Below are positions 908 through 40,072 of a stretch of 64,000 nt of DNA, piece by piece. The stretch lies in contig DULL01000018.1 in the NCBI GenBank assembly GCA_012840395.1, positions 5,072-69,071 on the forward strand. The letters run 5' to 3'. The translations under genes and the position numbers were made by a program. The stretch comes from Clostridiaceae bacterium (GTDB lineage: Bacteria; Bacillota; Clostridia; Acetivibrionales; DULL01). The notes under the pieces were generated by a model. That model saw only the letters and a list, made by a program, of their open reading frames with translations, ran no database searches and had not been told where the DNA came from. Every line of letters starts with the position of its first letter. The stretch's first letter is position 1.

Positions 908-964
908 TACTTACCATGACATTACATTTAAAATAACGTAGTTTATTATATTGCCCATTTGATA

Positions 965-1551
965 GGGGTGGCGCAGTATTCTAGTCAGTACTGCCGGTTC
1001 TGAAGACGGGCCTAAAAATCCGTTAAAGGGCATATCGATGAAGTTCCTGGTGTCGGCTTGTTACGCCCAGTAGTGGGCTGATGCTGGGAGTTAAGGTTTA
1101 GGGGCGATCCGCAATGGCATGTGGGCGTTGACCCCTCTACCGTGGAGACCCTGTATTGTGGGAAGGTGAAAATTAACCCAACTACGAACAGGGATTAAAC
1201 CTGTCTTGCGGTATAGTGATGCTGTGGACAGTGTAGCCTGCCTTGAGTGGGTTTGGTGGATAATGGATCAAATGATGATACATTGGCCGATGTAGAATCA
1301 TTATTGCTATTTGAAACCTTACTTGCAAAAGAGGCTAGGAATCGGACAGACTGTTGAGGAAAACTCCTAGACTGTCAATAATGTGTAATCTGGGGATTGA
1401 AGTGTGGACTAAGTGGTAATCAGGCCCCGTTTGTGGTAACGCAACGGTTGATGAATTAAAGGGAAACCGCTGATTTGGCGACAATTCAGTTTCATTCAAG
1501 GGAAAGCCTGCCTGACCTAAGCCACAAAATTTACTCAGTTTACAGCCACCC
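965..1551 (+). ncRNA. ole: OLE (ornate, large, extremophilic) RNA
   Basis: A block of about 590 nt has no + strand ORF and is visibly GC-richer than its AT-rich flanks. The ends are complementary (GGGTGGC 966-972 / GCCACCC 1545-1551). Local hairpins occur at 1065-1078 (GCCCA/TGGGC) and 1188-1204 (ACAGG/CCTGT). Its position between ispA and a 4-TM gene followed by dxs-tlyA-nadK-argR-recN is the described OLE synteny. Confidence 0.8.
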
Positions 1552-1626
1552 ATTATTAAATTAAAACTAATTACAAAAGTTATTGAATGTTAAATAAATT
1601 AAAATTTACTTGTTATAGTTGTTCTA

Positions 1627-2280
1627 GTGGAGGTTTTAGGAGTGGATGATGGCTTTAAATATCCATCAGACGAAAAAAAAGCAAAGTTCAGGATTAATTT
1701 TTCAGATGGCACAAAAGAAAATTCAAGATGGATAATAAATGTTTCAATAGTGTCTTTTTTATTGTCAGCAACTTTATTAATTTTATCGAATAAGATTCTT
1801 GAAGACAAAAGTATAATCACAGGTATATCAGTACTTATTTTTATAATTTTTATCGGAGTTTTGTTTGATATTATTGGCATTTCAGTGACGGCAGCCGAAG
1901 AGACTCCTTTTCATGCAATGGCTTCCAGAAAATATTATGGAGCCAAAAAGGCAATAAAATTAATTAGAAATGCAAATAAAGTATCGAGTATATGTAATGA
2001 TATTGTCGGTGATATATGCGGCATATTAAGTGGCGCTGCCAGTGCACTGGTAGTGATGAGGATTTCAGAAGGAATGAATGCACTGCAGTCTGCCATTGTG
2101 GGATTTCTGATAAGCGGGATGGTTGCCGCTTCCACCATAGGAGGAAAAGCTTTAGGGAAGACATTTGCCATAAATAATAGCAATTATATTGTATATAAAG
2201 TCAGTGTACTTCTTCAGTTTGTAAACAGCAGATTTAGTCTGGGAAATAATAAAAAGAAAAGGAAAAATAAATGCATCTAG
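1627..2280 (+). CDS. oapA: OLE-associated membrane protein OapA (four predicted TM helices)
   Basis: The gene lies immediately downstream of the OLE block. Four hydrophobic segments are visible (e.g. IINVSIVSFLLSATLLIL, ISVLIFIIFIGVLFDIIGISV). There is no in-frame ATG near the 5' end, so the start is GTG at 1627 or GTG at 1642, which follows GGAGG at 1629-1633. Confidence 0.7.
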   Translation: MEVLGVDDGFKYPSDEKKAKFRINFSDGTKENSRWIINVSIVSFLLSATLLILSNKILEDKSIITGISVLIFIIFIGVLFDIIGISVTAAEETPFHAMASRKYYGAKKAIKLIRNANKVSSICNDIVGDICGILSGAASALVVMRISEGMNALQSAIVGFLISGMVAASTIGGKALGKTFAINNSNYIVYKVSVLLQFVNSRFSLGNNKKKRKNKCI

Positions 2281-4198: not shown

Positions 4199-5008
4199 TT
4201 GTCAAAAGAAAGGCTTGATGTACTTCTAGTAAAAAAAGGTTTTTTTAATAGCCGTGAAAAAGCCAGAAGTTCAATTATGGCGGGAGTAGTTTATGTTAAT
4301 AATGTAAAAGCAGATAAGCCTGGTATGAAATATAATGATACTGATGATATTGTTATAAAAGAAAATATTAATCCTTTCGTAAGCAGGGGCGGCCTAAAAC
4401 TTCAAAAAGCATTATCATATTTCGGTATAAACCTCGAAGGTAAAATAGCTTTGGATATTGGTGCTTCTACAGGAGGCTTTACAGATTGCATGCTGAAAAA
4501 CGGCGCGGCAAAAGTTTATGCAATAGATGTAGGATACGGACAGTTAGCCTGGGAGTTAAGAAATGATGATAGAGTAGTATGTATGGAGAGAACCAATATA
4601 AGATATGTTAAACCGGAAGATATTGGAGAAGCTGCTTCTTTTGCGTCAATCGATGTATCTTTTATTTCTCTGAAAAAAGTACTTCCTGTTGTAAGTAAAC
4701 TTCTATCAGAGGATGGGGAAATCATATGCTTGGTTAAGCCTCAATTTGAAGCAGGCAGGGAAAAGGTCGGAAAGCATGGTGTGGTAAAAGATAAAGAAAC
4801 CCATGTACAAGTGCTGAAAGAGATTCTGTTGTTTTCTCGAAGCACAGGATTTGGGGTAAAAGGACTTACATATTCACCAATAAGAGGTCCAGAGGGAAAT
4901 ATTGAATTTTTATTATATCTAACGAAAAATAATATTTATACAGAAGACCATGAACTTGACATGCTAATAAAAGCTGTTGTAGAGGAATCACATAATTTAT
5001 CTGAATAA
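4199..5008 (+). CDS. tlyA: TlyA-family rRNA 2'-O-methyltransferase (S4 plus FtsJ-like domains)
   Basis: The N-terminus is S4-like (RLDVLLVKKGFFNSREKA). A SAM-binding motif DIGASTGGFTD is present. The start codon is TTG. Confidence 0.9.
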   Translation: MSKERLDVLLVKKGFFNSREKARSSIMAGVVYVNNVKADKPGMKYNDTDDIVIKENINPFVSRGGLKLQKALSYFGINLEGKIALDIGASTGGFTDCMLKNGAAKVYAIDVGYGQLAWELRNDDRVVCMERTNIRYVKPEDIGEAASFASIDVSFISLKKVLPVVSKLLSEDGEIICLVKPQFEAGREKVGKHGVVKDKETHVQVLKEILLFSRSTGFGVKGLTYSPIRGPEGNIEFLLYLTKNNIYTEDHELDMLIKAVVEESHNLSE

Positions 5009-5118: not shown

Positions 5119-6000
5119 ATGAAAACTATAAGTATTATAGTAAATATCGATAGAGATACAGATTTAAGGCATACCAAGACCTTGATAGATTGTGTGCAAA
5201 AAAGAGGCGGAAAAGTTAAAATCTGTAATGATATATCGGTAATACTGGGTAGAACTAATTTAGGATGTGACTATCAAGAAATTTTTGATGATACTGATGC
5301 AATAATATGCCTTGGAGGAGATGGTACATTTTTAAAAGCCGCAAGGACGGCAAATAAGAATGAGATTCCTGTTCTGGGAATTAATTTGGGGAATTTAGGC
5401 TTTCTCACCGAGGTTGATAAGAAAAAAATAGATGAGGCAGTTGAGTGCCTTTTTTCCGGACAATACTCCATAGAGAAGAGGATGATGCTTGAAGCTGCTA
5501 TTATCAGAGACGGGAAAATAATAGGACGAGATATTGCACTAAATGACATTGTTATTTCAAAAGGTGCGCTATCAAGAATAATTCATATAAAAACATATAT
5601 TAATGATTCATTTGTTGACATTTTTCCTGGAGACGGGCTAATAGTTTCAAGTCCCACAGGCTCTACTGCCTACTCCCTTTCGGCGGGAGGCCCGATTGTA
5701 GAGCCAGACTTAAATGTAATTATCGTTACACCTATTTGCCCGCACATACTTTACAGCAGATCATTTATTACTGATGGAGACAGAACCGTCAAAGCTATTG
5801 TTGATGAGAAGTACAAGTATAGCGCCATGGTTACTGCTGATGGACAGGAAGGTCATGAGATAAAGGGAGGAGATGTGATAGAGGTGAAAAAATCCCAACA
5901 TCATGTCAACCTCATAAGGATGAATCCAAAAAATTTCTTCAGTATACTTCGTAAGAAAATATATTACCGAGGAGAGGATTTAAGGAAAAATGAAGTATAG
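5119..6000 (+). CDS. nadK: NAD kinase
   Basis: The GGDGTFL motif and the length are typical of NAD kinase (PpnK/NadF). Confidence 0.9.
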   Translation: MKTISIIVNIDRDTDLRHTKTLIDCVQKRGGKVKICNDISVILGRTNLGCDYQEIFDDTDAIICLGGDGTFLKAARTANKNEIPVLGINLGNLGFLTEVDKKKIDEAVECLFSGQYSIEKRMMLEAAIIRDGKIIGRDIALNDIVISKGALSRIIHIKTYINDSFVDIFPGDGLIVSSPTGSTAYSLSAGGPIVEPDLNVIIVTPICPHILYSRSFITDGDRTVKAIVDEKYKYSAMVTADGQEGHEIKGGDVIEVKKSQHHVNLIRMNPKNFFSILRKKIYYRGEDLRKNEV

Positions 6001-6439
6001 CAGGCATGCAAAAATTCTTGAGTTAATTGAAAACTATGATATTGAAACACAGGAAGAACTTGTTGAAAAACTCAAGGAACATGGGATGGAAGTAACCCAG
6101 GCAACCATATCCAGGGATATAAAAGAGTTAAGGCTGGTTAAGGTAATGAATAGCGAGGGTAAATATAAGTATTCTACCATGGTTGGCTCGGTGAATGTTG
6201 CTTCAAACAAACTATTAAAAGTTTTTAGTGAATCCTATGTAAATAGTGATTATGCCAATAACATAGTTGTTGTAAAAACTCTGCCCGGAATGGCACAGGC
6301 GGCTGCATCAGCTCTGGATTCCCTGAAACTTGATGAGATACTTGGTACAATTGCCGGAGATGATACATTAATGATAGTATGTAGGGCTGAAAAAATTGCA
6401 GAAGAGCTTTCGGAGAGGTTGAAGACCATCGGCAGATAG
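5990..6439 (+). CDS. argR: Arginine repressor
   Basis: The 149-aa protein has an N-terminal winged helix (QEELVEKLKEHGMEVTQATISRDIKEL) and a C-terminal oligomerisation domain (GTIAGDDT). It overlaps the end of nadK. Confidence 0.9.
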   Translation: MKYSRHAKILELIENYDIETQEELVEKLKEHGMEVTQATISRDIKELRLVKVMNSEGKYKYSTMVGSVNVASNKLLKVFSESYVNSDYANNIVVVKTLPGMAQAAASALDSLKLDEILGTIAGDDTLMIVCRAEKIAEELSERLKTIGR

Positions 6440-6459: not shown

Positions 6460-8175
6460 ATGCTCCAGCTATTAGAAATACATAATATTGCTTTAATTGA
6501 CAAGGTCAAAATTGAGTTTGGAGAAGGTCTTAATGTTTTGACAGGAGAAACTGGCGCCGGAAAATCAATTATAATTGACTCTATAAACGCTGTACTTGGT
6601 GAAAGAGTTTCCAAGGATCTAATAAAGACAGATAAAGATAAAGCCATGGTAGAGGCTGTTTTTAATGTGCCAAAGCAAAGGATTGAAGACATATTCATTA
6701 ACTTCGGGATTCCTACTGAAGAAGACGGGACAATAATAATTTCAAGAGAATTTACTTTGACAGGCCGTAATATATGCAGGGTGAACGGTATTCTTGTGAC
6801 AGTGTCCACCTTAAAAGAGATCGGTTCAAGACTGATCGACATGCATGGACAGCATGATAACCAATCGCTTCTAAGAACTGAAAGTCATATTGATTTGCTG
6901 GATTTATTCGGCGGAGCGCGCATTGGAGATTTAAAGAGCAAGTATTTAGAACTTTTAGAAAAGTATAAAGAGATTAAAAACTCCTTAAAAGCTTTAACAG
7001 GTGAAGAAGGCGAACGAGAAAGAAAAATAGATCTTCTAAAATTCCAGATTGATGAAATAGCAAAGGCTAATCTGATTCCAGGAGAAGAGGAAAAACTAAA
7101 TAAACATAGAATATTGCTTTCAAATTCAGAGAAAATTTTAAACGCTTTAAATTCATCCTATGAATTACTTTATTCAGGAGAAGACAATAAAGTACCTGCT
7201 TCTGAAACAATTGGACAGGCTATATCCGAGCTTAAGTCAATCAGCCGTTTTGACAGCGGTTATCAGGATATTGCAGACAGGTTGGAAAATATTTCGTATC
7301 TTTTGTACGACTTAATAGATGAAATCAGAAAAGAAAGGGATAATATTGAATATGATCCGTCATTGCTGGAGGAAATTGAGCAGAGACTGGATACGATATA
7401 TAAGTTGAAAAGAAAGTATGGAAGGACTGTTGAGGAAATTCTTCAGTTCTATAATAAAGCAAAAGAAGAGCTGGAAAAGTTAAGCAGTAGCCAGGAAACA
7501 ATAGCTTACTTGCATGACAAATTAAAGGAAACAGGAAATCAGCTATATAAGATTGCTTCGGATTTAAACTCAGAAAGGTTAAAGGCTGCTTTGCTGTTGG
7601 AAAGTAAAATATGCAGTGAGCTGGAAGATCTGGAAATGAAAAGCACCAGATTTAAGACTTCTATCAAGTTTGAAGATTCTTTAGGTGAAGATGGCCATTG
7701 GAACTTTACTCAAAAAGGCATGGATCGGGTTGAATTTTTGATTTCCACAAATCCCGGGGAACCATTAAAGCCTCTTTCTAAAATTGCTTCCGGGGGAGAA
7801 ATGTCAAGGATAATGTTAGCAATAAAAACCATACTTGCTGATGTTGACCAGATTCCTACTCTGATTTTTGATGAAATAGATATAGGGATAAGTGGGATTG
7901 CTTCTCAAAAAGTAGGAGAAAAATTATCCCTTATTTCCCAAAATCATCAGGTAATATGTGTTACCCATCTTCCTCAAATTGCTTCTATGGCAGATTGCCA
8001 TTTTTTAATAGAAAAAATAAGTGAAAATGAAAAAACATTAACCAAAGTAAAGAAACTTGAAGGGAAGGAAATAGTAGAGGAATTATCAAGAATTATGAGT
8101 GGAACACATATTTCCGAGATAACTAGAAAACATGCAGAAGAATTGCTTTTCCTGGCAAAAAACAAGAAAAGATAA
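6460..8175 (+). CDS. recN: DNA repair protein RecN
   Basis: The protein has Walker A GETGAGKS, a long coiled-coil middle section and a C-terminal SMC-like signature (ASGGEMSR, LIFDEID). Confidence 0.95.
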   Translation: MLQLLEIHNIALIDKVKIEFGEGLNVLTGETGAGKSIIIDSINAVLGERVSKDLIKTDKDKAMVEAVFNVPKQRIEDIFINFGIPTEEDGTIIISREFTLTGRNICRVNGILVTVSTLKEIGSRLIDMHGQHDNQSLLRTESHIDLLDLFGGARIGDLKSKYLELLEKYKEIKNSLKALTGEEGERERKIDLLKFQIDEIAKANLIPGEEEKLNKHRILLSNSEKILNALNSSYELLYSGEDNKVPASETIGQAISELKSISRFDSGYQDIADRLENISYLLYDLIDEIRKERDNIEYDPSLLEEIEQRLDTIYKLKRKYGRTVEEILQFYNKAKEELEKLSSSQETIAYLHDKLKETGNQLYKIASDLNSERLKAALLLESKICSELEDLEMKSTRFKTSIKFEDSLGEDGHWNFTQKGMDRVEFLISTNPGEPLKPLSKIASGGEMSRIMLAIKTILADVDQIPTLIFDEIDIGISGIASQKVGEKLSLISQNHQVICVTHLPQIASMADCHFLIEKISENEKTLTKVKKLEGKEIVEELSRIMSGTHISEITRKHAEELLFLAKNKKR

Positions 8176-15505: not shown

Positions 15506-15611
15506 ATTAAGCAAAAAAATGTCTTAATTATCGTAATATTGACACTCTATCGGAATATATTGTATAATGCTATAATAATTGAGGTAAAAATTTTTGTTAA
15601 ATAATGTAAAA

Positions 15612-15888
15612 GACAATGAATGGAAAGAGTAAAAAGCATGGACCCTCATAAGAGAGCAGGGGTTAGGTGAAAGCCTTGCAGGGAGTGCTTTTGAAAATCA
15701 TCCAGGAGTCGCAGCCTGAAATCATGGATCTATGAAATTAAGGTGTGCCGGGAAACCGTTATAAAATTAAGTGATTAATGATGTTATATTACAGTATTGA
15801 TATTGTGTAATATAATATTCGTTAGTAATTTGGGTGGTACCACGTGAAAAAGTCTTCTCGTCCCTTAGGATTGAGAGGACTTTATTTT
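15612..15888 (+). promoter_or_regulatory. T-box riboswitch (Ile specifier) controlling ileS
   Basis: AGAGA and GGTGAAAG stem I elements are present. The specifier AUC is at 15697-15699 and is followed by a purine. The T-box sequence AATTTGGGTGGTACCACG is at 15827-15844. A terminator at 15850-15888 ends in TTTATTTT. Confidence 0.9.
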
Positions 15889-16012
15889 AGCTCATTTTTA
15901 GTTGTTTGTTTAATAATAATTATTTAACTTGCTTATCATTTATTTTAAAAATCAGAGCATGATAAGCATAAATAAAAAAATGCCGGTGAATAACGACAGG
16001 ATGGTGGTTTTT

Positions 16013-19000
16013 ATGTACAACAAAGTATCTACGAGTTTAAATTTTGTTGAAAGAGAAATAGAAGTTCTGGATTTCTGGAAAAAGGAAAATATATTTCAGA
16101 AAAGCATTGAGGCAAGGGAAGGTTGCCCTGTTTTCACATTTTATGATGGCCCGCCTACAGCAAATGGTAAGCCACATATTGGCCATATACTGACCAGGGT
16201 TATAAAAGACATTATTCCCAGGTATAAAACTATGAAAGGTTATAAAGTATTGCGTAAAGCAGGTTGGGATACCCATGGTTTGCCTGTGGAACTTGAAGTT
16301 GAAAAAATGCTTGGGATTAATGGAAAACCGCAAATTGAAGAATATGGTGTTGAACCGTTTATTGAGAAATGTAAGCAGAGTGTATGGAAATATGAGCAGG
16401 AATGGAGAAAAATGAGTGACAGGGTAGGATACTGGGCAGACATGGATAATCCATATGTAACATACCACAACTCATATATTGAATCTGTATGGTGGTCATT
16501 AAAGAAAATTTGGGATGCCGGGCTGATATACAAAGGGCACAAGATAGTCCCCTATTGTCCCAGATGTGGTACTTCCCTGTCAAGCCACGAAGTTGCCCAG
16601 GGTTATAAGGATGTCAAGGAGCCTTCAATATTTGTAAAGTTCCTGGTTAAAGGAGAAAAACAGCGTTTTCTCATGGCATGGACAACAACTCCATGGACAT
16701 TGCCTTCAAACGTTGCCCTGGCTGTAAATCCTTATGAAACTTATGTCGAAGTTAAATGCAAGGATGAAACTTATATTCTGGCAAAAGCATTGGCTGAGAG
16801 CGTTCTGAAAGAAGAATACCAGGTGATAGAAGAGAAACCCGGTGAAAGCCTTATAGGTATTGAATATGAGCCACTTTTTGACTTCGCAAAAATTGACAAA
16901 AAAGCCCATTATGTAGTAGGTGCTGAATTTGTTACTCTTACCGACGGTACCGGTATTGTTCATATTGCACCTGCTTTTGGAGAAGATGACGCTAAAGTAG
17001 GACGTGACAATGATCTTCCATTTGTTCAGCTTGTAAATGAACAAGGTAAGTTTACTGAAGATGTTACTCCCTGGAAAAATGTTTTTGTAAAGGACGCAGA
17101 CCCTGAGATTATCAAAAACCTTGATCAGAGAAATCTCTTGTATAGGGTCCTGGATTATGAGCATTCCTATCCTTTCTGCTGGAGATGCGATACTCCATTG
17201 CTTTACTATGCTAATGATACATGGTTTATTAAAATGACAGAGGTAAAGGATAAGCTGCTTAAAAACAACAGGAAGATAAATTGGCTGCCTGAAAGCATTA
17301 AAGAAGGCCGTTTTGGCAACTTCCTGGAAAACGTTGTAGACTGGGGACTTAGCCGTTCAAGGTACTGGGGAACGCCTCTTCCTATATGGGAATGCCAGTG
17401 CGGTCACCGCCATGTAATTGGAAGTATAGCTGAACTAAAAGAAATGGGAGAAAACGTTCCAGATGATATCGAACTTCATAAGCCTTTTATAGATAAGGTT
17501 TATCTTAAATGTCCAAAATGTAAGGAAGGAAGAATGAAGAGAGTACCTGAAGTTATAGATTGCTGGTATGATTCTGGTTCCATGCCTTTTGCACAATGGC
17601 ATTATCCTTTTGAAAATGAGGAAATATTTAGAGAAAATTTCCCTGCTGATTTTATCAGTGAAGCCATAGATCAGACAAGAGGCTGGTTTTATACTTTACT
17701 GGCAATATCAACTCTTATTTTTGATGAGCCTTCTTTCCTGAATTGTATAGTTTTAGGCCATGTAAATGATAAAGATGGCCAAAAAATGAGCAAACACAAG
17801 GGTAATGTTGTTGACCCCTGGTCAGTTTTGGATAAACAGGGAGCAGATGCACTGCGTTGGTATTTTTATACAGGAAGTTCACCATGGCTCCCGAGCAGAT
17901 TCTATGACGAAGCAGTAAGTGAAGCTCAGAGAAAATTCATGGGAACTATTTGGAATACCTATGCTTTTTATGTGCTATATGCGAATATTGACAAATTCAA
18001 TCCCTTAGAATACACACTGGATAGAGAAAAATTGTCAACAATAGATAAATGGATATTGTCCAGGTTACATTCGCTTATTGACCTGGTAGACAAGGATCTA
18101 GCAAATTACAGGATAACCGAGCCTGCAAGAGCTGTTCAGGAATTTGTTGATGATCTTAGTAATTGGTATGTCAGAAGAAGCAGAGAAAGATTCTGGCAAA
18201 AAGATATGCCCCAGGATAAGATTAATGCCTTTATGACTCTCTATACAGTATTAGATACGCTTACCAGGCTTATGGCTCCTTTTGTACCATTTATGTCGGA
18301 GGAAATATATCAGAACTTGGTAAGAAACATTAATCCTTCTGCACCGGAAAGTGTACATCTGTGTAATTTCCCGGAAAGCAGGAAGGAATTTATAGATAAA
18401 GAACTTGAAAAGAATATGGACCTGGTTTTAAAGGTAGTAGTCCTTGGGAGAGCATGCAGAAATTCAGCCAATATAAAGAACAGGCAACCTCTGGGGAAAA
18501 TGTATGTTATGGCAGAATTCGAGCTTCCTGAAATGTACAGGGATCTGATAAAAGACGAACTTAATGTTAAGGATATTGTATTTACGGATAATACAAATAT
18601 GTTTACAACTTATCTGTTCAAACCTCAGTTGAAAGTATTAGGCCCCCGCTATGGAAAACTGGTGCCAAAGATAGCTCAGCTGTTAAAGGAAGTGGACGGC
18701 CAGGAAGTAATGGGTGGATTTGATGCAGGAAAAGATTTGGTATTAACAGTTGATGGTACAGAAATATCTTTATCCAAGGAAGATCTTCTCATTGAGGTTG
18801 TCCAGAAAGAAGGCTTCATTACTGAAGCTGAAAAAAATATTACGGTGGTACTTGATACAAACCTCACACCTGAGCTTATAGAAGAAGGTTTTGTCCGCGA
18901 GATAACCAGCAAGATCCAGACCATGAGAAAAGAAGCGGGCTTTGAGGTACAGGACCATATCAGGCTGTATTATAAAGATAATGATAAAATTGCAGAAATA

Positions 19001-19132
19001 ATTGAGAGAAATAAGGAGTTAATTGCAGAAGAAGTACTTGCTGATGAAATAGCTGAAGGAAGCTCAGAAGGCTATAGCAAGGAATGGAATATTAATGGAG
19101 AAACTGTCAGCATGACAGTTGCAAAGGTGTAA
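16013..19132 (+). CDS. ileS: Isoleucine--tRNA ligase
   Basis: HIGH (PHIGHILT) and KMSKS (KMSKHKGN) motifs and a CP1 editing domain are present. The true start is judged to be ATG at 16013 (MYNKVSTS...), because the ORF-track extension runs into the leader. Confidence 0.97.
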   Translation: MYNKVSTSLNFVEREIEVLDFWKKENIFQKSIEAREGCPVFTFYDGPPTANGKPHIGHILTRVIKDIIPRYKTMKGYKVLRKAGWDTHGLPVELEVEKMLGINGKPQIEEYGVEPFIEKCKQSVWKYEQEWRKMSDRVGYWADMDNPYVTYHNSYIESVWWSLKKIWDAGLIYKGHKIVPYCPRCGTSLSSHEVAQGYKDVKEPSIFVKFLVKGEKQRFLMAWTTTPWTLPSNVALAVNPYETYVEVKCKDETYILAKALAESVLKEEYQVIEEKPGESLIGIEYEPLFDFAKIDKKAHYVVGAEFVTLTDGTGIVHIAPAFGEDDAKVGRDNDLPFVQLVNEQGKFTEDVTPWKNVFVKDADPEIIKNLDQRNLLYRVLDYEHSYPFCWRCDTPLLYYANDTWFIKMTEVKDKLLKNNRKINWLPESIKEGRFGNFLENVVDWGLSRSRYWGTPLPIWECQCGHRHVIGSIAELKEMGENVPDDIELHKPFIDKVYLKCPKCKEGRMKRVPEVIDCWYDSGSMPFAQWHYPFENEEIFRENFPADFISEAIDQTRGWFYTLLAISTLIFDEPSFLNCIVLGHVNDKDGQKMSKHKGNVVDPWSVLDKQGADALRWYFYTGSSPWLPSRFYDEAVSEAQRKFMGTIWNTYAFYVLYANIDKFNPLEYTLDREKLSTIDKWILSRLHSLIDLVDKDLANYRITEPARAVQEFVDDLSNWYVRRSRERFWQKDMPQDKINAFMTLYTVLDTLTRLMAPFVPFMSEEIYQNLVRNINPSAPESVHLCNFPESRKEFIDKELEKNMDLVLKVVVLGRACRNSANIKNRQPLGKMYVMAEFELPEMYRDLIKDELNVKDIVFTDNTNMFTTYLFKPQLKVLGPRYGKLVPKIAQLLKEVDGQEVMGGFDAGKDLVLTVDGTEISLSKEDLLIEVVQKEGFITEAEKNITVVLDTNLTPELIEEGFVREITSKIQTMRKEAGFEVQDHIRLYYKDNDKIAEIIERNKELIAEEVLADEIAEGSSEGYSKEWNINGETVSMTVAKV

Positions 19133-31176: not shown

Positions 31177-32712
31177 ATGGTAACAAGGTTGTATTTCGTA
31201 AGACATGCAGAAGCAGAAGGCAATGTAAAAAGAATATTCCATGGCTGGACCGATGCCAAGCTTACAGAAAAGGGACGTATTCAGGCACAAAAATTAGCAG
31301 CCAGGATGAAAGATATGGATATAGATGTCATCTATTCGAGCAGCCTTGAAAGGGCAAAGGAAACTGCTGCTTATATTGCGGCTGCAAAGAATCTTCCAGT
31401 TATATCTAATGATAACTTAAGAGAAATAAATGGAGGAAGCTGGGAAAATCAGAAGTGGGAAGATCTTCCCTTAAAATGGCCTTATGAATATCATACATGG
31501 GAGAACAGGCCTCATATCCATAACATGCCTGATGGAGAATCCATGGAAGATTTTCAGGAAAGGCTTATTTCTGAAATAAAGTATATAATTGATAATAATA
31601 TGGGTAAAAATGTATGTATTGTTACCCATGGCACTGCAATTAAAGCATTGATATGCTATTTCACCGGATGTTCTCTTGAAGAAATGTTAAATATTAATTG
31701 GGTAGATAATACTTCAATAACTGAAATTCATTATGAAGATGGCACGTTTAAAGTTGTTGATGAAGGTGATTCTTCACATTTGGGAGATGAATACTCTACA
31801 CTGAAATTTCAGGATTGGTGGGAGTACAACAAGATAATGATAGAAAAAAGAAACAGAATTATATCTTTGATGTTTGAGACAGGGGCTTTACAAGTCTGCC
31901 CTGAGGACTCCCCTTTTTGGTATACTTCTGGTACAATAGGACCATATTACATAAACACCCATTATTTGTATGGAAGTAAAGAAAAGGCCGAAATGTTGCT
32001 AAAAGATATCGAAATCGCCACCAAGGACAGACTGACATGTTCTGGTGAGATTTTGGCAAAAGTGCTGAAGAATTATAACGAAGAATTGATATATAAAGAA
32101 TTAATTGATGAATTATGTGATTATATAAAAAGTAAGATAAATATTGATAAAGTAGATTATATCTCAGGAGGAGAACGAAGAGACTGGTTTTTTTCACTAA
32201 TTGCCGCAAGGATACTTAAAAAGCCACATCTGACTATATTTAAGGATCTGGATGTTGTGGTATTTGATGGAGAAAAGTCCTGGAGAACAGATAATATAAA
32301 TGGTGCCAGTGTTTTACATATAGCAGACCTCATCACTGAAGCTTCAAGTTATATAAGGGCCTGGATACCGGCGGTAAAGAGTATAAATGGTGTAATGAAA
32401 TGGTCTGTAGTAATTGTTGATAGGAATCAGGGCGGAGAGGAAATGCTATTAAGAGAGAAGATAATTTCCCACGGGATGGTATATATTAATAAGGGACTTT
32501 TTGATAAAGCACTTTCTTTTGGTTTGATTAATGAAAAACAATATAATTTGATAATAGAATATTTAGAAAATCCAAGAGAGTCAATGAGAAAATTTTTGAT
32601 ACAGAATCCCGAGTTCATTGAAAAGGCAATGAAAAGTGACAAAAGAACAAGGGAAAGAGCTGAACTGTGTATAGAGAAAGATATTTATGGATTGGGAGAG
32701 AGGAAATCTTGA
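31177..32712 (+). CDS. Fusion protein: N-terminal histidine phosphatase (PGM/CobC superfamily) plus C-terminal divergent orotate-phosphoribosyltransferase-like domain
   Basis: The N-terminus carries [10 protein letters not shown] and THGTAI catalytic-His motifs. The C-terminal region of about 300 aa parallels PyrE ([15 protein letters not shown] hood) and has [13 protein letters not shown] at the PRPP-loop position. It sits where pyrE is expected in the operon. Confidence 0.7.
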
Positions 32713-32819
32713 AAAATAGTACAGGGGACAGAAGGAAAGATATTCTGGTCGCGCAGGAGGAAATTGCAAGACAGCAAGGTATTGCAGAGGAAATTAAGCA
32801 ATTGAATTACCAGGAAGAA

Positions 32820-34169
32820 ATGAAAACCGGGAAAAAGAAACTTTTTTATATAGAAACCCTTGGTTGCCAGATGAATGAAAATGATTCAGAAAAATTGGCA
32901 GGTATGTTAAATGAGATGGGATATTCCGAATCTGACAATGCGGAAAACAGCGACCTTATTATAGTAAATACCTGCTGTGTCAGGGAAAATGCCGAACAAA
33001 AAGTATATGGGCACCTGGGTAGATACAAAAGTCTTAAAGAAGAGAAACCTGGTATGGTAATTGCTGTATGCGGATGCATGATGCAGCAAAATGAAGTAGG
33101 TGATAGCATAAAAAGGAAATACAGGCATGTAGATTTGGTATTTGGCACTCACAATTTGCATAAATTTCCTGAATATTTGTACAACGTCTTGTCTTCAAGA
33201 ATAAGAGTTATTGATATATGGGAATCTTCAGGTTCCATAGCCGAGGGTTTGCCAATAACCAGAAAAGACGGAATCAAAGCCTGGGTAACAATTATGTATG
33301 GCTGCAATAATTTCTGCTCTTATTGTATTGTTCCATATGTAAGGGGAAGAGAAAGAAGCAGAATGCCTGAAGATATAGTCAGGGAAATTGAAATATTAGG
33401 AGAACAGGGATATAAAGAGGTTACTTTGCTGGGCCAGAATGTAAATTCCTATGGGAAAGATCTGGATCAGAATATTAGTTTTGCAAGGTTGTTGGAAAAA
33501 ATTAATAAAATTAATGGTATTGAAAGAATAAGATTTACCACATCTCATCCCAAGGATTTGTCTGACGAACTAATTGTTGCCATGAGGGACCTGGAGAAGG
33601 TTTGCAACCATCTTCATCTTCCTTTACAAGCCGGAAGTACAAGAATACTTAAAGCAATGAACAGAAAATATACCAAAGAAGATTATTTATCTTTGACAGA
33701 GAAAATAAAAAAGGAAATACCGGATATAGCCTTGTCCACAGATATTATTGTGGGTTTTCCCGGCGAAACCGAAGAAGATTTTAATGATACTATTGACGTA
33801 GTGGAAAAGGTTAGGTTCGATTCTGCTTATACTTTCCTGTATTCAAAAAGAAAAGGAACACCTGCAGCAAAAAATCCTGAACAAGTGGAGGAAGAAGTTA
33901 AAAAAAGGAGATTTGGAAGACTGTTGGAGGTACAAAACAAAATAAGCAGGGAACTTAATGAAAAACTGCTCAATAAGGTGGAAGAAATACTTGTGGAGGG
34001 TATTAGCAAAAATAATCCTCATGTATATACAGGAAGAACAAGAACCAATAAGATAGTAAACTTTCAGGGGGATTCAAGTATGGTTGGCAGAATTATTAAA
34101 GTTAAAATCAATAAAATTCAAACCTGGTCTCTTGAAGGTACAGTAGTGCCTGCTGGTGATAACAAATGA
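32820..34169 (+). CDS. miaB: tRNA-i6A37 methylthiotransferase MiaB
   Basis: It has the UPF0004 N-domain ([15 protein letters not shown]), the radical-SAM motif [11 protein letters not shown] and a TRAM C-terminus. TTG at 32709 is an alternative upstream start, so the start is uncertain. Confidence 0.9.
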
Positions 34170-36832
34170 GCACCTTGACTCCAATGATGCAGCAGTATAT
34201 TGAAATAAAAAGCAAGTATAAGGATTGTATTCTTTTTTTCAGGCTGGGTGATTTCTATGAAATGTTTTTTGAAGATGCGGAAATAGCGTCGGCTGAACTT
34301 GAGATTACACTTACCGGAAGGGATTGCGGCCTGGAAGAAAGGGCTCCCATGTGCGGAGTACCATATCATGCTGCAGAAACTTACATAGCAAAATTATTAA
34401 GTAAGGGGTATAAGGTTGCAATATGTGAACAGACTGAAGATCCTGCTCTGGCAAAGGGAATAGTTAAAAGGGAAGTCATAAGGGTAATAACTCCCGGTAC
34501 ATTAACTGAATCATCCATGCTTGACGAGAAAAAGAATAATTTTCTCATGTCTATTTTTAAGGAAGGGTACTGCTTTGGAATAGCAGTTGTAGATCTGTCA
34601 ACAGGGGAATTTGTAACAACTAAAATTACCCGAGGTAATACCACTTCCAAACTCCTGGATGAAATAGCAAAGTATTCTCCTTCTGAGATAATTGCAAATT
34701 CAGCATTACTGGAAGATAATGAGCAAGTAAAATCTATTAGGAACAGATTTGAAACATATATTTCTCATTTTGGTGACAGTTATTTCGAGTTGGAAAATGC
34801 CAGGAACAGATTAATAAGTAAGTTTGAAAAATCAGAACATGGTGTACAGCAATTATTTGCCGGCAGGTCTGATTCTAAATCTTTACTATCGGAAGAACAT
34901 TTATGGCAAAGTGCTTCAGGCGCATTACTTGAATACCTGGAGCAAACCCAGAAAACCAGTCTGGATCACATACAAAAACTCGAATTGTATGAGATTGAGG
35001 AATATATGGTTCTGGATGTTTCCACCAGAAGAAACCTTGAATTGACTGAAACTATGAGGGATAAGTCCAGAAAGGGTACACTACTGTGGGTGCTTGACAG
35101 GACAAATACTTCTATGGGAGCGAGAATGCTGAAAAAATGGATAGAGCAGCCACTGGTAAATATAGATGATATTAATGAGAGGCTTGCGGCGGTAGAGGAA
35201 TTTAAAAACCGCTTTATGGTAAGAATGGAAATAAAGGAGTTGCTAAAAGGGGTCTATGATATTGAAAGACTAACGAGTAAAATTGTTATTGGATCTGCCA
35301 ACTGCAGAGACCTTATAGCTCTAAAAAACTCCCTGGGTAAGCTTCCATATATTAAGGAAATACTAAAAAATTGTACAGCTTCATTGAACAATAAAAATTA
35401 TAACCAGATAGATACATTGGAAGATATATATCAGCTTATAGAAAACTCTATTGTCGATGATCCTCCTGTTGCTGTAAAAGAAGGAGGTATCATAAAAACC
35501 GGTTTTAATGAGGAAGTGGACAAGCTAAGAAAGGCATCTACGGAAGGTAAAGACTGGATCCTGCAATTGGAAAGTACTGAAAGGGAAAAGACGGGTATAA
35601 AAAACCTGAAGGTAGGATATAACAGGGTTTTCGGATATTATATCGAAGTAACAAAATCATATTATTCCCAGGTACCTTCAAGTTATATCAGGAAGCAGAC
35701 CCTTTCAAATTGTGAAAGGTATATTACACAAGAATTAAAAGAAATTGAGGATACAATTCTTGGAGCCGAAAGTAAAGTAATTGAACTCGAATACAGTTTA
35801 TTTTTAGAAATTAAAGCCAAAATAGCATCTGAGGTATCGCGAATTAAGAATACCGCCAGGGCAATAGCTGAGATAGATGTTTTGTGTTCATTGGCAGAAG
35901 TGGCTGACAGGGAATCATACATTATGCCATCTGTTGATTCCGGTGGTATAATCGAAATTAAAGGCGGCAGACATCCTGTTGTAGAAAAAATGCTGGAAGA
36001 AGGTACATTTGTTCCTAATGATACATTGCTGGACATGGAAGAAAACCGAATATTAATTATTACCGGACCCAACATGGCAGGTAAGTCCACCTATATGCGG
36101 CAGGTAGCCCTGATAGTTTTAATGGCTCAACTGGGAAGTTTTGTACCTGCCGAATATGCCAAAATTGGTGTGGTGGACCGGATATTCACCAGGGTAGGGG
36201 CATCGGATGACCTTGCTTCAGGCCAAAGCACATTTATGGTTGAAATGACTGAGGTGGCCAATATATTGGCAAATGCAACTTCAAGGAGTCTTCTGGTACT
36301 TGATGAAATTGGAAGAGGAACGAGTACTTTCGACGGTCTCAGCATAGCATGGGCGGTTATAGAGTATATCAGCGACAAGGAAATAATGGGGGCAAGAACC
36401 TTATTTGCCACACACTATCATGAACTGACAGAGTTAGAGGGAGAAATTGAAGGAGTTAAGAATTACTGTATCTCTGTAAAAGAAAAAGGAGAAGATATAA
36501 TATTTTTAAGGAAAATAATCAGGGGTGGAGCCGATAGCAGTTACGGAATACAGGTGGCCAGGCTGGCAGGTCTTCCACAGGTTGTACTGGATAGGGCAAA
36601 GGAAGTTCTAAAAGAGCTGGAAGATACCGATATAAGCAAGAAACAGACCAGAAGCAGACGCGGCAGGGCACCGATAGAAGGTCAGATTGATATATTCCAT
36701 ATGAATAGTCAGACAAAGAGTAAAGACACGATAATTGAGGAAATAAAAAAAGTAGATATTTCAAAGATAACACCTCTGGATGCTCTGAATTTTATTTATA
36801 GGCTGCAGGAAAAAATCAAGAAGGGATTATAA
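34166..36832 (+). CDS. mutS: DNA mismatch repair protein MutS
   Basis: The N-terminus is TPMMQQY and Walker [10 protein letters not shown] is present. The start overlaps the miaB stop codon. Confidence 0.97.
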
Positions 36833-38757
36833 TGAGTAAAATTATTGTATTAGATGAGATTACTGTGAACAGAATAGCAGCAGGAGAGGTTGTTGAAAGG
36901 CCTGCATCAGTTGTCAAGGAGCTTGTAGAAAACTCCCTGGATGCAGGTGCTTCCAGTATTACTGTTGAGATAAAAAATGGAGGAATTACATATATTAAGG
37001 TTATGGATAACGGCTCAGGAATAGAAGAAGGAGATGTAGAAATAGCTTTTGAAAGGCATGCAACCAGTAAAATAATGTATCCGGATGATCTTGAGTCAGT
37101 ATCAACTATGGGTTTTAGAGGGGAAGCCCTGGCAAGCATTGCAGCAGTTTCAAACATTGAGCTTACAACAAGAACTAAGGGCAGTATTTATGGTACTTAT
37201 ATTAAGTTAAGCGGTGGTACTATATTAGAAAAGAATCAAAAGGGATGTCCTGTAGGAACAACCATAATTGTAAAAGACTTGTTTTTCAATACTCCCGCAA
37301 GGTATAAGTTTCTGAAAAAAGACAGTACCGAAGGTGGCTATGTGGCAGATATACTTAACCGTATAGCATTAGGTAACCCGGATGTCTCCATAAAGCTTGT
37401 AAATAATGGGACTGTGGTACTGCATACTCCGGGAAACAATGACCTTTTAAGTGCAGTTTTCAGCGTTTATGGGAGAGATATTTCCAGCAGGTTGATTAAA
37501 ATAGACTATGTGGAAGATAATGTAAGAATTACAGGTTATGCGGGCAAGCCTGAGATAGCAAGATCCAACAGAAATCATCAGTCAATATTTGTTAACGGAA
37601 GATACATTAAGAGTAAGATAGTTACATCAGCTATTGATGAGGCATATAAAACTCTTCTTATGAAAAATAAATTCCCATTTATTATATTAAATATAGATAT
37701 TAATCCTTCCCTGGTGGATGTAAATGTGCACCCTGCAAAAACCGAGGTAAGGTTTTCCAGTGAGCAGGATACATTTAGAATTGTTTATAATGCAATCTAT
37801 GGATCAGTAATGGAGAAACCCCTTATTAGAAATATTGAATCTGCCGGAAATGAATATTTACCGGGTGAAATATATCCTGGTCAAAGCCCTGGGGAAGGTA
37901 TAACCAGGGATTACTATCAGAAATCTGATTATAAGTGGAGTGAATTTCAAAAGGATGATTATAAACAAGAGAGCTTTGATGTTAAAGGGCATTTAGTTTC
38001 TGATAACATGTCACCTGGTTCGGTGTTTCAAAGTGACGAATTATTCGGGAATAATATAGAAAGTAATTTCCCGGGGAACAGGGACAAAAGTGATGAAACT
38101 GCAAAGATGACCCCTGGGGACTTATCTGATAAACCTGAGGTTTTGCCTGTTAATGATGCAAAAATGATTATGGATGAACTATTGGAGGCAAAAATAATTG
38201 GACAGGTTTTTTCAACATATATATTATTGGAATATAACCAAGAAATTATTATAATTGACCAGCATGCTGCCCATGAGAGGATAATGTATGAAAGCCTGCT
38301 AAGAAAATATAAGAATAATGAAACCTTGGCCCAGACACTGTTAAATCCTGTAACAGTTGAGCTAACAAACAGTGAAATAATGCTTCTTGAGGCTAATAAG
38401 GATTTTTTTAATAAGATGGGTTTTATATTTGAGAATTTTGGTAATAATTCTATTATACTAAGAGCAGTACCCTATATTAATTCTCAAAGTGATTTCAATA
38501 GTTTGTTCCTGGATATAATAGATATTGCCAAAGGCGTGAACAGGCAAGAACACACAAAAACAGAGGAAGAAGCATTATATATGATGGCTTGCAAGGCTGC
38601 TGTAAAGGCAAATAAAAAGCTTGACAACATGGAAGTAAAAAGTTTATTGAGAGAGATGGCAAGCCTGGATAACCCATATTCATGCCCTCATGGCAGGCCT
38701 ACAATGATAAAAATGAGCTTACGTGAGCTTGAAAAAAGATTTAAGAGGATTATATAG
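36832..38757 (+). CDS. mutL: DNA mismatch repair endonuclease MutL
   Basis: It has the GHKL ATPase motifs (ELVENSLDAG, GFRGEAL), a low-complexity linker and a C-terminal dimerisation/endonuclease domain (DQHAAHER). Confidence 0.95.
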   Translation: MSKIIVLDEITVNRIAAGEVVERPASVVKELVENSLDAGASSITVEIKNGGITYIKVMDNGSGIEEGDVEIAFERHATSKIMYPDDLESVSTMGFRGEALASIAAVSNIELTTRTKGSIYGTYIKLSGGTILEKNQKGCPVGTTIIVKDLFFNTPARYKFLKKDSTEGGYVADILNRIALGNPDVSIKLVNNGTVVLHTPGNNDLLSAVFSVYGRDISSRLIKIDYVEDNVRITGYAGKPEIARSNRNHQSIFVNGRYIKSKIVTSAIDEAYKTLLMKNKFPFIILNIDINPSLVDVNVHPAKTEVRFSSEQDTFRIVYNAIYGSVMEKPLIRNIESAGNEYLPGEIYPGQSPGEGITRDYYQKSDYKWSEFQKDDYKQESFDVKGHLVSDNMSPGSVFQSDELFGNNIESNFPGNRDKSDETAKMTPGDLSDKPEVLPVNDAKMIMDELLEAKIIGQVFSTYILLEYNQEIIIIDQHAAHERIMYESLLRKYKNNETLAQTLLNPVTVELTNSEIMLLEANKDFFNKMGFIFENFGNNSIILRAVPYINSQSDFNSLFLDIIDIAKGVNRQEHTKTEEEALYMMACKAAVKANKKLDNMEVKSLLREMASLDNPYSCPHGRPTMIKMSLRELEKRFKRII

Positions 38758-38806
38758 CATACCAATGTGAGTATATAAATTAACAAAAAACATAGGAGGT
38801 CATAAA

Positions 38807-39748: not shown

Positions 39749-39829
39749 AATTAGTAATATCAAATTAATAAAAATATAATGAATTGAAGGTTTGGTCAGA
39801 TAATTTGCATATAAGAGGAGGATTTTTCA

Positions 39830-40072
39830 GTGAACAAGACAAATATTAATTTACAGGATGTTTTTTTAAATCAAGTACGTAAAGAATACATAGCAGTTAC
39901 AGTATATTTAACAAATGGTTTTCAGCTAAAAGGATTAGTAAAAGGGTTCGATAATTTTACTGTTGTTTTGGAAACTGATGGGAAACAGCAACTTATATAT
40001 AAACATGCAATATCCACTATAGCTCCATTGAAAGCAGTTAATCTTATTTTTAATGATAGTGGAAAAGAATAA
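39830..40072 (+). CDS. hfq: RNA chaperone Hfq
   Basis: It has the Sm1/Sm2 motifs ([33 protein letters not shown]). The start is GTG. Confidence 0.95.

Follow-up and report, generated by a model that had tools for sequence, protein, structure and literature searches.

What fills the long interval downstream of ispA in the genome of an uncultured Clostridia-type bacterium, and does the membrane protein encoded right after it belong to the same system? We analysed a window of 64,000 nucleotides (the whole stretch of DNA under study), in which the ispA stop at 748 is separated from the next CDS by 878-893 nt, depending on whether the latter starts at 1627 (longest ORF) or at 1642 (database protein P0001). 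The GC content of 965-1551 is 0.474, against 0.245 and 0.189 in its flanks (749-964 and 1552-1641) and 0.359 in the whole window. There is no sense-strand ORF in 749-1626, the longest stop-free run on the + strand being 41 codons; the sole ORF of at least 50 aa in the gap lies at 1335-1553 on the minus strand, inside the conserved RNA described below. The features of the locus are as follows.

17-748, + strand: ispA, farnesyl diphosphate synthase (FPP synthase); NF045485 at 314 bits, PF00348; truncated 5' by the start of the window
965-1551, + strand: OLE RNA, full-length type, from the 5' to the 3' strand of P1; RF01071, covariation, MFE
1629-1633, + strand: ribosome-binding site GGAGG, 8 nt before GTG 1642, read from the sequence
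1642-2280, + strand: oapA, 212 aa, four-TM CNNM-like membrane protein; 100% match to P0001
2295-8175, + strand: downstream operon; equivalog-level NCBIfam and Pfam matches
2295/2298-4196, + strand: dxs (NCBIfam/Pfam)
4199-5008, + strand: tlyA (NCBIfam/Pfam)
5119-6000, + strand: nadK (NCBIfam/Pfam)
5990-6439, + strand: argR (NCBIfam/Pfam)
6460-8175, + strand: recN (NCBIfam/Pfam)

The complete length of ispA is 297 aa (L001). With spoIVB and spo0A found 3' of recN, the flanks of ole-oapA read xseAB-ispA upstream and dxs-tlyA-nadK-argR-recN-spoIVB-spo0A downstream: this is the classic OLE neighbourhood, matching its published description (PMC12265935). The contig comes from a biogas-fermenter metagenome and carries spo0A, spoIVB, spoIIIAH and cotJ genes; the closest named homologues of its OapA belong to Acetivibrio spp. 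and Clostridiaceae MAGs. The host is an anaerobic, spore-forming member of the Bacillota, as expected from the host range of OLE.

Identity of the RNA

An OLE (ornate, large, extremophilic) RNA of full length is encoded by the block at 965-1551. In an Rfam search, model RF01071 (gathering score 50 bits) aligns to 952-1565 on the + strand with 560.2 bits and an E-value of 1.4e-161; the alignment is not truncated and takes in all 616 model positions (1-616). No other of the 58 OLEs that were scored reaches as high an Rfam score. Canonical base pairs form at 143 of the 157 model pairs. The 14 non-canonical ones fall mostly in the P7 tip and in P9, where conservation is lowest across all sequences.

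For covariation, we combined the Rfam model with a MAFFT alignment of 28 full-length OLE sequences. Both sides change in 131 of 173 pairs, and 88.6% of cells are paired, compared with 38-45% in slid controls; the covariation score is 0.536 (slid controls: 0.12-0.13), a value reached by none of 500 shuffles. P1, P2 and P3 covary too, though they lack Rfam annotation. At the variable P7 and P9 tips the pair percentages of 57-66% are underestimates, because MAFFT misaligns those tips. The MFE of the block is -216.6 kcal/mol, against -177.5 +/- 5.9 kcal/mol for shuffles (z = -6.6).

A sequence-only reading of the same DNA had proposed OLE here, pointing to a gap of about 900 nt with a GC-rich block and no sense ORF, and to the gene order ispA, dxs, tlyA, nadK, argR, recN. 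The gap and the block are as described, the gene order is borne out by Pfam and NCBIfam, and the whole covariance model is covered by the match; the block is also kept in relatives, with pairs varying on both sides. The complementarity noticed between its termini (GGGTGGC 966-972 and GCCACCC 1545-1551) is P1, with seven canonical pairs, six of which covary. The hairpins given as examples, 1065-1078 and 1188-1204, have to be dropped: their complementarity is local and plays no part in the conserved fold. In that fold, 1065-1069 is the P5.1 loop and 1070-1078 lies within the 3' strand of P5.1, while 1188-1193 closes P7 and 1201-1204 opens P8.

Two other groups of RNAs are worth comparing. Short OLE variants (RF39-type, Bacilli and 'Tenericutes' gut MAGs) account for 29 of the 57 OLE-bearing loci found; they belong to the same family and have oapA downstream, but at about 480-500 nt and 200-240 bits they lack part of J6/7-P8 (PMC11332333), whereas the window's RNA is full-length. 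ROOL and GOLLD, also large and highly structured bacterial RNAs, likewise assemble into homo-oligomers by themselves (PMC12286853). Unlike OLE, they are mostly associated with phages or prophages, build nanocages and lack a membrane protein partner, and they are unrelated to it in sequence and structure. An Rfam search yielded no ROOL or GOLLD match in the window.

Helices and putative functional sites

Helix names P1-P14.1 were assigned from published text descriptions. The elements are listed below with their 5' coordinates or full span.

966-972, + strand: P1 5' strand GGGUGGC, partner GCCACCC at 1545-1551; 7/7 pairs canonical
973-984, + strand: P2 5' strand (GCAG...UCUAG), partner CUAGACUGU at 1367-1375; 9/9 pairs canonical
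991-1001, + strand: P3/P3.1 5' strand, partner 1338-1349 (3 + 8 bp, A1346 bulged); 11/11 pairs canonical
1005-1024, + strand: P4 hairpin GACGGG-CCUAAAAA-UCCGUU with A-rich loop; 96.4% paired, 5/6 pairs covarying
1034-1041, + strand: J4a/5, AUCGAU palindrome and bulged strand of the k-turn (AUC / GAU / GA); identical to the consensus
1044-1090, + strand: P5/P5.1 long hairpin, loop GCCCA at 1065-1069; 20 pairs, 97.0% of cells paired
1095-1141, + strand: P6/P6.1, loop AAUGGCAU at 1114-1119; GGCAU invariant
1149-1231, + strand: P7 (1149-1193) and P8 (1201-1231) hairpins; helices 8-9 of the alignment
1240-1335, + strand: P9 long arm, terminal loop UUGGCCGA at 1284-1289; helices 10-14 of the alignment
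1384-1544, + strand: Domain 2 (P10-P15 region), three-tier long-range stem around P13 and P14; helices 18-23
1427-1447, + strand: P13, GUAA (GNRA) loop at 1436-1439 and lone bulged U1432; putative OapB site
1469-1490, + strand: P14.1, GCGA loop; putative weak second OapB site

The pairing of the two termini in P1 is not due to chance: across the 28 OLEs, six of its seven pairs vary on both sides, and pairing is kept in 95.9% of cells. In P2, 96-100% of cells are paired and two pairs show changes on both sides. P3 has been proposed as a membrane-spanning helix (PMC12265935): its inner 8 bp are paired in 82.5% of cells, with both-side changes in seven of eight pairs, and its outer 3 bp in 52.6%, the sequences being poorly aligned there. 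P5/P5.1 has 11 pairs with changes on both sides. P6/P6.1 contains two mispairs, at 1098/1138 and 1099/1137, where pairing is poor in every sequence.

The presence of both P7 and P8 marks the full-length type of OLE, variants without J6/7-P8 being known (PMC11332333, PMC12265935). The tip of P7 is short in the window's OLE, with four non-canonical pairs; three related loci (L003-L005) carry some 55 inserted nt there. In Domain 2, helices 18-23 are 84-99% paired and nearly every pair covaries.

OapA binding sites were reportedly mapped by Block et al. in 2011. The 5' strand of P2 contains a CUAG palindrome, a putative OapA-binding region, and AUCGAU in J4a/5 is a candidate for the second; palindromes in or near P2 and P4a are the OapA sites of the literature (PMC12265935). 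The same junction provides the bulged strand of a predicted k-turn. In the Lyon 2022 model, the other strand is AAGGU at 1093-1097, which matches the consensus exactly, and C1036-G1095 would be the critical pair; the OLE k-turn, with C85-G144 in that role, is the OapC site (PMC9723947), and the window's OLE carries a putative site for this protein. Kretsch et al. pair J4a/5 with J6/7 instead (PMC12286853). Recognition by OapB needs a GNRA loop and a one-nucleotide bulge (PMC7936274): P13 has both, which makes it a likely OapB site.

OLE dimerises through its loops. The A-rich P4 loop makes dimer bridge B1 via A-A pairs (PMC12286853), and in our alignment the As of this loop (CCUAAAAAUCC) are invariant. 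The P5.1 loop GCCCA, invariant as well, would participate in bridge B2; its partner in the OLE dimer is the P6.1 loop. The terminal loop of P9 carries a GGCC palindrome, and a palindromic L9 forms the symmetric kissing loop of bridge B3, with GGCC/GAUC/AGCU covariation (PMC12286853). All four dimerisation loops (CCUAAAAAUCC, GCCCA, AAUGGCAU and UUGGCCGA) are present, invariant or nearly so in the alignment, and their sequences appear intact. Judged by sequence, the same applies to every documented functional site of OLE: P4, P9, P13, the k-turn, CUAG and AUCGAU.

The OLE RNAs of Halalkalibacterium halodurans, Clostridium acetobutylicum and C. botulinum are of the same length class and have the same helices P1-P15. 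They share the A-rich P4, GCCCA P5.1, UGGCAU P6.1 and GGCC P9 loops, the GNRA loop and bulge of P13, the k-turn strands, the proximal promoter, oapA directly 3' and a neighbourhood of isoprenoid, DNA-repair and sporulation genes. In P1, the window has GGGUGGC/GCCACCC rather than the consensus GUGGUG/CACCAC, a compensatory change; otherwise the differences are at the level of lineage only, namely the short P7 tip and the distance of about 50 nt from the predicted start to P1. As a canonical example of a class that has been studied well, the locus is correctly identified and holds nothing new. It adds one further canonical, intact OLE, from an uncultured bacterium of a biogas reactor, and as a clean full-length representative with the top score of 58 this RNA can be used in comparative and structural work. 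It opens no fresh question, and the biochemical function of OLE becomes no more testable from it.

OapA and the search for other partners

The protein encoded at 1642-2280 is, from its sequence features, OapA, the obligate membrane partner of OLE. The sequence-only reading had already called it so, from an ORF at 1627-2280 of about 215 aa with four TM helices: the helices stand, and the start is to be moved, as translation probably begins at GTG 1642 (within the longest ORF from 1627) and gives 212 aa. The homology holds too. BLASTP aligns 176 aa with 37% identity (E = 2e-33) between the protein and the OapA of Supplementary Table 4 of Kretsch et al. 2025, and the four TM helices, the DxxxD motif and the basic loop are present.

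The spacer from the end of P1 (1551) to GTG 1642 is 90 nt, on the same strand; of the 59 homologue loci where this could be assessed, 57 likewise have the protein encoded immediately 3' of a co-oriented OLE. Hydrophobic segments are found at residues ~30-50, 58-84, 118-140 and 147-168, and the AF2 model (pLDDT 77.6) has helices at 24-55, 58-84, 111-141 and 147-178. The DxxxD motif, by which OapA proteins are recognised (PMC11332333), reads D120-I-V-G-D124, with D120, G123 and D124 invariant in 56 homologues. Between TM2 and TM3 runs a basic loop, R96-K113 (R96, K97, K102, K103, K106, R109, K113), predicted to be cytoplasmic; of these residues, R96 never varies among the homologues, and conservation is 90% or more at K97, R109 and K113. 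OapA is set apart from CNNM domains by the absence of a characteristic conserved proline; the only prolines here are P8 and P89, the latter invariant among homologues. In addition, the protein has a 29-residue N-terminal extension (pLDDT <50) and a Lys-rich C-terminal tail.

A search of the PDB with the OapA sequence returned nothing at E <= 1 and no NCBIfam model for OapA matched, so membership rests on the motifs, the literature sequence, the fold and the gene context. As for the fold, the top six Foldseek matches are all CNNM/CorB/CorC proteins (PDB 7M1T, 7M1U, 7CFF, 7CFG), with probabilities of 0.99-1.0 and TM-scores of 0.41-0.54. The PF01595 (CNNM) match of 22.7 bits is below the gathering score of 28.4, and CNNM similarity is sub-threshold in published work as well (PMC11332333). 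Published OapA has the same four TM helices, the DxxxD in TM3 and the basic loop, and lacks CBS and CorC domains. OapA resembles MpfA, CorB and CorC in its transmembrane fold, in its weak PF01595 match and in a link in the literature to Mg2+ tolerance; in contrast to them, OapA has four TM helices, not three, has no CBS pair or CorC domain, carries DxxxD and needs an RNA partner. With its sub-threshold PF01595 match, its lack of CBS and CorC domains and its need of an RNA, it is not of the MpfA family, and the public database label of P0001, 'Mg2+ and Co2+ transporter CorB', is a misnomer. Herein lies the value for annotation: 900 nt that would pass for "blank" are explained, and the gene labelled "CorB" should be oapA.

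Other known partners were sought among the small and mid-sized ORFs of the window and upstream of it, a search covering oapB, oapC and rpsU. No KOW or L7Ae domain turned up among the ORFs scanned, and neither oapB (KOW/YbzG) nor oapC (YbxF, L7Ae-like) was found in the 64 kb of the window or in a further 6.7 kb upstream of it: the scanned ORFs encode YggT, CotJA/B, Hfq, LysM, S16, KhpA, YlxM, YabP, L19, DUF5665, UPF0102 or CBM proteins. A tblastn search of the window with OapC and RpsU gave noise only, an orphan 100-aa ORF had no PDB match, and there was no MpfA-type protein among the mid-sized window ORFs scanned. OapB and OapC are carried by ~60% and ~45% of OLE hosts, respectively (PMC11332333).

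Promoter, proposed working and alternatives

Upstream of the RNA we find one further feature:

880-907, + strand: candidate sigma-70-like ole promoter, with -35 TTAACG (880-885), a 16-nt spacer and an extended -10 TGaTATAAT (899-907)

It is the best promoter-like site in 600-2400, with 10 of 12 matches plus the TG. TATAAT upstream of OLE is invariant in all six related loci; the TG of the extended -10 is present in the window, L003, L004, L007 and L016 and absent in L005. We infer that this promoter drives ole here. In B. halodurans, a proximal ole promoter was shown by experiment in 2012 (PMC3413148), and we rejected a conserved extended -10 promoter as a novelty on this ground. The predicted start, ~914, is about 50 nt 5' of P1, while in four relatives the -10 element is 10-20 nt from P1; processing of the 5' end may therefore be needed. 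No terminator-like site was found on the + strand in 600-2400, hence none between ole and oapA.

Few bacterial non-coding RNAs are as intriguing as OLE, a membrane-bound dimer of ~600 nt that may span the membrane. Here it would be made from its own promoter and probably also by read-through from ispA, and would accumulate as a stable species of ~600 nt, by analogy with the OLE of H. halodurans and Clostridium. Domain 1 (P3-P9) is expected to dimerise via its loops in P4 (A-rich), P5.1, P6.1 and P9 (GGCC). Domain 2 (P1, P2, P10-P15) would offer the P13 hairpin, with its GNRA loop and bulge, to OapB, and the J4a/5 k-turn would serve OapC. OapA may bind the two palindromes on either side of P3, CUAG and AUCGAU, and anchor the RNA at the membrane, possibly through it.

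In such a complex, OLE would supply the regulatory or sensing module that Mg2+ exporters of the MpfA/CorB type carry as protein domains: it would tune a divalent-cation pathway of OapA and recruit OapB, OapC and bS21. The expected outcome is tolerance of excess Mg2+, short-chain alcohols, cold and poor carbon sources. By analogy, tuning of cation transport by OapA is the most likely working mechanism, and it is the leading hypothesis of the field. The knockout phenotypes, the relation of OapA to CNNM, the anticorrelation with MpfA and the dimer/transmembrane model all come from published work (PMC11332333, PMC12265935, PMC12286853).

The order promoter-ole-oapA, nearly universal and with a short spacer free of terminators, could itself be mechanistically required, with OLE delivered in cis on the ole-oapA transcript, an idea that we consider improbable. 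Nascent OapA, inserted co-translationally in an SRP/YidC-dependent manner, would pull the attached RNA to the bilayer; while being inserted it would take hold of the palindromes of P2 and P4a, on either side of P3, and the RNA would then be cut free. If true, this would give the polyanionic P3 helix a route to lie across the membrane.

The lack of a terminator also leaves room for a different reading, in which the block between the promoter and oapA is a cis-acting 5' leader (riboswitch-like or an attenuator) for oapA-dxs and not a stand-alone RNA; true leaders, a T-box and a THF riboswitch, do exist elsewhere in the window. We regard this as very unlikely, given the end-to-end match to a gene-type RNA family of 616 positions, the lack of an expression platform or terminator, and a size of ~590 nt with ~25 helices that is far beyond any riboswitch. 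Moreover, the OLE of B. halodurans is a single stable RNA of ~600 nt with a half-life of ~3 h (PMC3413148). Equally remote is a decaying or non-functional relic of OLE. Rare defective OLE genes are mentioned by Fernando and Breaker (PMC11332333), and the 14 non-canonical pairs might be read as decay; yet defective copies occur where OapA is missing (PMC11332333), while here an intact oapA with the invariant DxxxD follows an RNA that outscores all OLEs compared and keeps every known protein-binding and dimerisation motif. That the block is coding on the minus strand, or is a mobile element or intron, has a negligible chance: the 72-aa ORF at 1335-1553 exists, but it spans just the 3' third of the block and the substitutions obey the rules of base pairing, not of codons; flanking repeats are absent, and OLE is the only Rfam match in the block, with no intron or ribozyme family among the matches.

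A question of function rather than identity is whether OLE could primarily be a ribozyme or a scaffold sequestering, for example, bS21 or ArgR, with OapA as an anchor only and no regulation of ion transport. Its size and complexity, with ~25% of nucleotides conserved above 97%, resemble known ribozymes; bS21 and OapC bind domain 1 (PMC12265935, PMC12286853), and argR is in the same operon, ArgR being mentioned as an unpublished partner. On the other hand, no catalysis or splicing was detected (PMC3413148), the OapA fold matches only Mg2+ transporters, and Mg2+ hypersensitivity of the knockout together with the MpfA anticorrelation points to ion homeostasis (PMC11332333). This alternative seems to us rather unlikely. 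Nothing we found is contrary to the identification of OLE and OapA, and we are highly confident that a canonical OLE RNA with its OapA partner, working as inferred above, is jointly the best explanation of the locus.

Away from this locus, an Rfam search identified the T-box and the THF riboswitch as genuine leader RNAs of the window, and a 500-aa miaB-like radical-SAM gene lies at 32667-34169.

OLE RNA at 965-1551

The ispA gene ends at 748 (product: 314 bits to NF045485, FPP synthase, plus a PF00348 match). The next coding sequence starts at 1627 as the longest ORF, or at 1642 according to database protein P0001 (212 aa, identical to the window protein), where a GGAGG ribosome-binding site lies 8 nt upstream. 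Within this gap, 965-1551 has a G+C content of 47.4% (flanks 24.5% and 18.9%, whole window 35.9%), and the longest stop-free run on the sense strand is 41 codons. The gap, the GC-rich block and the lack of a sense ORF are thus as the sequence-only reading had described them. The predicted folding energy of the 597-nt segment is -216.6 kcal/mol, whereas dinucleotide shuffles give -177.5 ± 5.9 kcal/mol (z = -6.6).

The proposed OLE RNA is borne out by its Rfam model: RF01071 matches 952-1565 (+) with 560.2 bits (gathering score 50, E 1.4e-161), untruncated over all 616 model positions. Canonical pairing holds for 143 of the 157 model base pairs mapped onto the window, and the other 14 concentrate in two places, the P7 tip and the P9 arm. 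Both P7 and P8 are found, which makes the RNA one of the full-length type.

Using the downstream protein as query, we drew 60 loci from a one-genome-per-species collection and scanned them with Rfam. Upstream sequence is available for 59 of these loci, and 57 of them carry an OLE there in the same orientation; none of these OLEs scores as high as that of the window. They comprise 27 full-length RNAs, one cut by a contig end and 29 short variants (about 480-500 nt, 200-240 bits) from gut MAGs labelled Bacilli, RF39-type, 'Tenericutes', Erysipelotrichaceae and others (loci L020, L021, L030, L031, L033, L035-L037, L039, L040, L042-L052 and L054-L061). Such short variants were described by Fernando and Breaker 2024 (PMC11332333). 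In L036, L037, L043, L044, L047 and L048 a tRNA gene in opposite orientation sits just upstream of the short OLE, apparently without mention in the OLE literature.

We aligned the 27 full-length RNAs with that of the window and tested the Rfam pairs together with P1, P2 and P3, helices that Rfam does not annotate. Paired states fill 88.6% of cells, compared to 38-45% when partners are slid by 1-3 columns, and both partners vary in 131 of 173 pairs, in line with the conservation expected of an OLE. The covariation score, 0.536 versus 0.12-0.13, was reached by none of 500 shuffles. The fully complementary ends noticed in the sequence (GGGTGGC 966-972, GCCACCC 1545-1551) form the terminal helix P1, with six of seven pairs covarying; P2 (UCUAG/CUAGA and GCAG/CUGU) is 96-100% paired, and P3 has seven covarying pairs among its inner 8 bp. 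The two example hairpins offered by the same reading, 1065-1078 and 1188-1204, did not hold: they fall outside the conserved fold, at the P5.1 loop with its 3' strand and at the P7/P8 junction.

In the OLEs of three closely related MAGs (L003-L005) an insertion lengthens the P7 tip by about 55 nt (alignment columns 240-310) compared with the short P7 of the window. The alignment shows that this tip tolerates large length changes.

OapA, the downstream protein

The product of 1642-2280 matches Pfam CNNM/DUF21 below threshold (22.7 versus 28.4 bits), with no NCBIfam model and no match in a PDB sequence search. This is the behaviour published for OapA, itself a sub-threshold CNNM match (PMC11332333). 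It is 37% identical (E 2e-33) to the OapA of Kretsch et al., Supplementary Table 4, sharing the blocks PFHAMAS, CNDxxGD and GGKA, which upholds the suggested assignment. Four hydrophobic segments agree with the four TM helices foreseen; a basic loop, R96-K113, sits between TM2 and TM3, and three residues of the D120-IVG-D124 motif (D120, G123 and D124) do not vary among 56 homologues.

An AlphaFold2 model (mean pLDDT 77.6, core 85-90) has as its best six PDB matches only structures of the CNNM-family Mg2+ transporters MtCorB (7M1T, 7M1U) and CorC (7CFF, 7CFG), with probabilities of 0.99-1.0; those beyond are noise. The fold is related to MpfA/CorB, but neither CBS nor CorC domains are found in the protein, which places OapA outside that family. 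For the same reason we reject the database name of P0001, "Mg2+ and Co2+ transporter CorB". This label, or 'CBS domain containing-hemolysin-like protein', is also attached to the OapAs P0020, P0036-P0038, P0065, P0106 and P0113; it has propagated across public records of proteins with no CBS or CorC domains.

Gene neighbourhood and transcription

The window comes from a 75-kb contig of a biogas-fermenter metagenome. Genes follow in this order:
upstream: spoIIIAH, two Asp23-family genes (yqhY-like), nusB, xseA, xseB, ispA
ole, oapA, dxs
downstream: tlyA, nadK, argR, recN, spoIVB, spo0A

The order from ispA to recN is the one first recognised, with ole-oapA between ispA and dxs, and the whole spoIIIAH-to-spo0A neighbourhood is that reported for ole (PMC12265935). 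The system is already known, and this apparently functional, canonical ole-oapA locus (965-2280) fits the published picture throughout, with no departure seen; the initial observation and its OLE/OapA interpretation both stand.

The top promoter-like site of the region is TTAACG-16-TGaTATAAT at 880-907. It matches the proximal ole promoter verified experimentally in B. halodurans (PMC3413148) and is therefore not new. Upstream of OLE, TATAAT is invariant in six of six related loci, its TG extension missing only in L005. The -10 element lies 10-20 nt from P1 in L003, L004, L005 and L016; in the window (908-964) and in L007 (about 40 nt) the two are separated by an AT-rich insert, some 40-55 nt long. 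If used, the predicted promoter would yield a 5' leader absent in relatives, or call for 5' trimming. No terminator-like element was found between ole and oapA, so read-through into oapA is likely.

Neither oapB, oapC nor rpsU was found in the 64-kb window or 6.7 kb upstream, which says little, given that only about 60% of OLE hosts carry OapB and only about 45% OapC (PMC11332333).

According to the literature, OLE and OapA nearly always occur together. Two MAGs, SRR873606_bin.1 (L025:2989-3510) and SRR873610_bin.2 (L027:1520-1996), encode OapA homologues (41-43% identical, CNNM 25.9 bits) with no OLE detected at Rfam E <= 1 within about 3 kb either side (L025) or about 1.5 kb upstream (L027). 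These may be rare orphan OapAs, or the genomes may carry ole at another position. In L025 the neighbours are a DUF285 (Mycoplasma-type) ORF, 52 nt before the start of the oapA homologue, and, downstream, a short-chain dehydrogenase gene, possibly dltE-like.

Functional sites, proposed mechanism and other elements

Read from the sequence, all sites documented in the literature (PMC12265935, PMC12286853, PMC9723947, PMC7936274) are intact in the window OLE:
A-rich P4 loop CCUAAAAAUCC, dimer bridge B1
P5.1 loop GCCCA and P6.1 loop AAUGGCAU, dimer bridge B2
P9 loop UUGGCCGA with a GGCC palindrome inside, dimer bridge B3
1427-1447, P13 with GUAA tetraloop and single bulged U1432, OapB determinant
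P14.1, GCGA loop
1034-1041, J4a/5 strand AUC-GAU-GA, OapC k-turn including the C-G pair
CUAG and AUCGAU palindromes near P2 and P4a, OapA contacts as mapped in the literature

Beyond the identities of RNA and protein and the integrity of these sites, the mechanism is drawn from model organisms. By this analogy, OLE RNA would accumulate as a stable species and dimerise through domain 1; OapA would bind the palindromes flanking P3, tethering the RNA at, or possibly across, the membrane, and OLE would also recruit OapB, OapC and bS21. In the leading hypothesis, which we adopt with moderate confidence, the regulation that MpfA-type exporters receive from their CBS and CorC modules would come from the RNA, which would in this way govern an OapA pathway for divalent cations as well as broader stress responses. 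As the main rival, OLE may instead be catalytic or sequestering, with OapA as an anchor only.

A co-directional block at 32667-40072 (+) holds a miaB-like radical-SAM gene, mutS, mutL, miaA and hfq, a typical Firmicutes arrangement; this hfq of a Clostridia-type genome lies 38 kb from OLE, with no link implied. Two further RNA elements were found:
15607-15868, +, T-box leader (127.9 bits, gathering score 93)
51260-51360, +, THF riboswitch aptamer (87.1 bits, gathering score 36)

The T-box directly precedes an ileS-like class I aminoacyl-tRNA synthetase of 1067 aa (15929-19132; domains tRNA-synt_1, Anticodon_1 and DUF5915), an ordinary arrangement. The THF riboswitch is directly 5' of a folT-like ECF-transporter S component (51415-51936), as expected.
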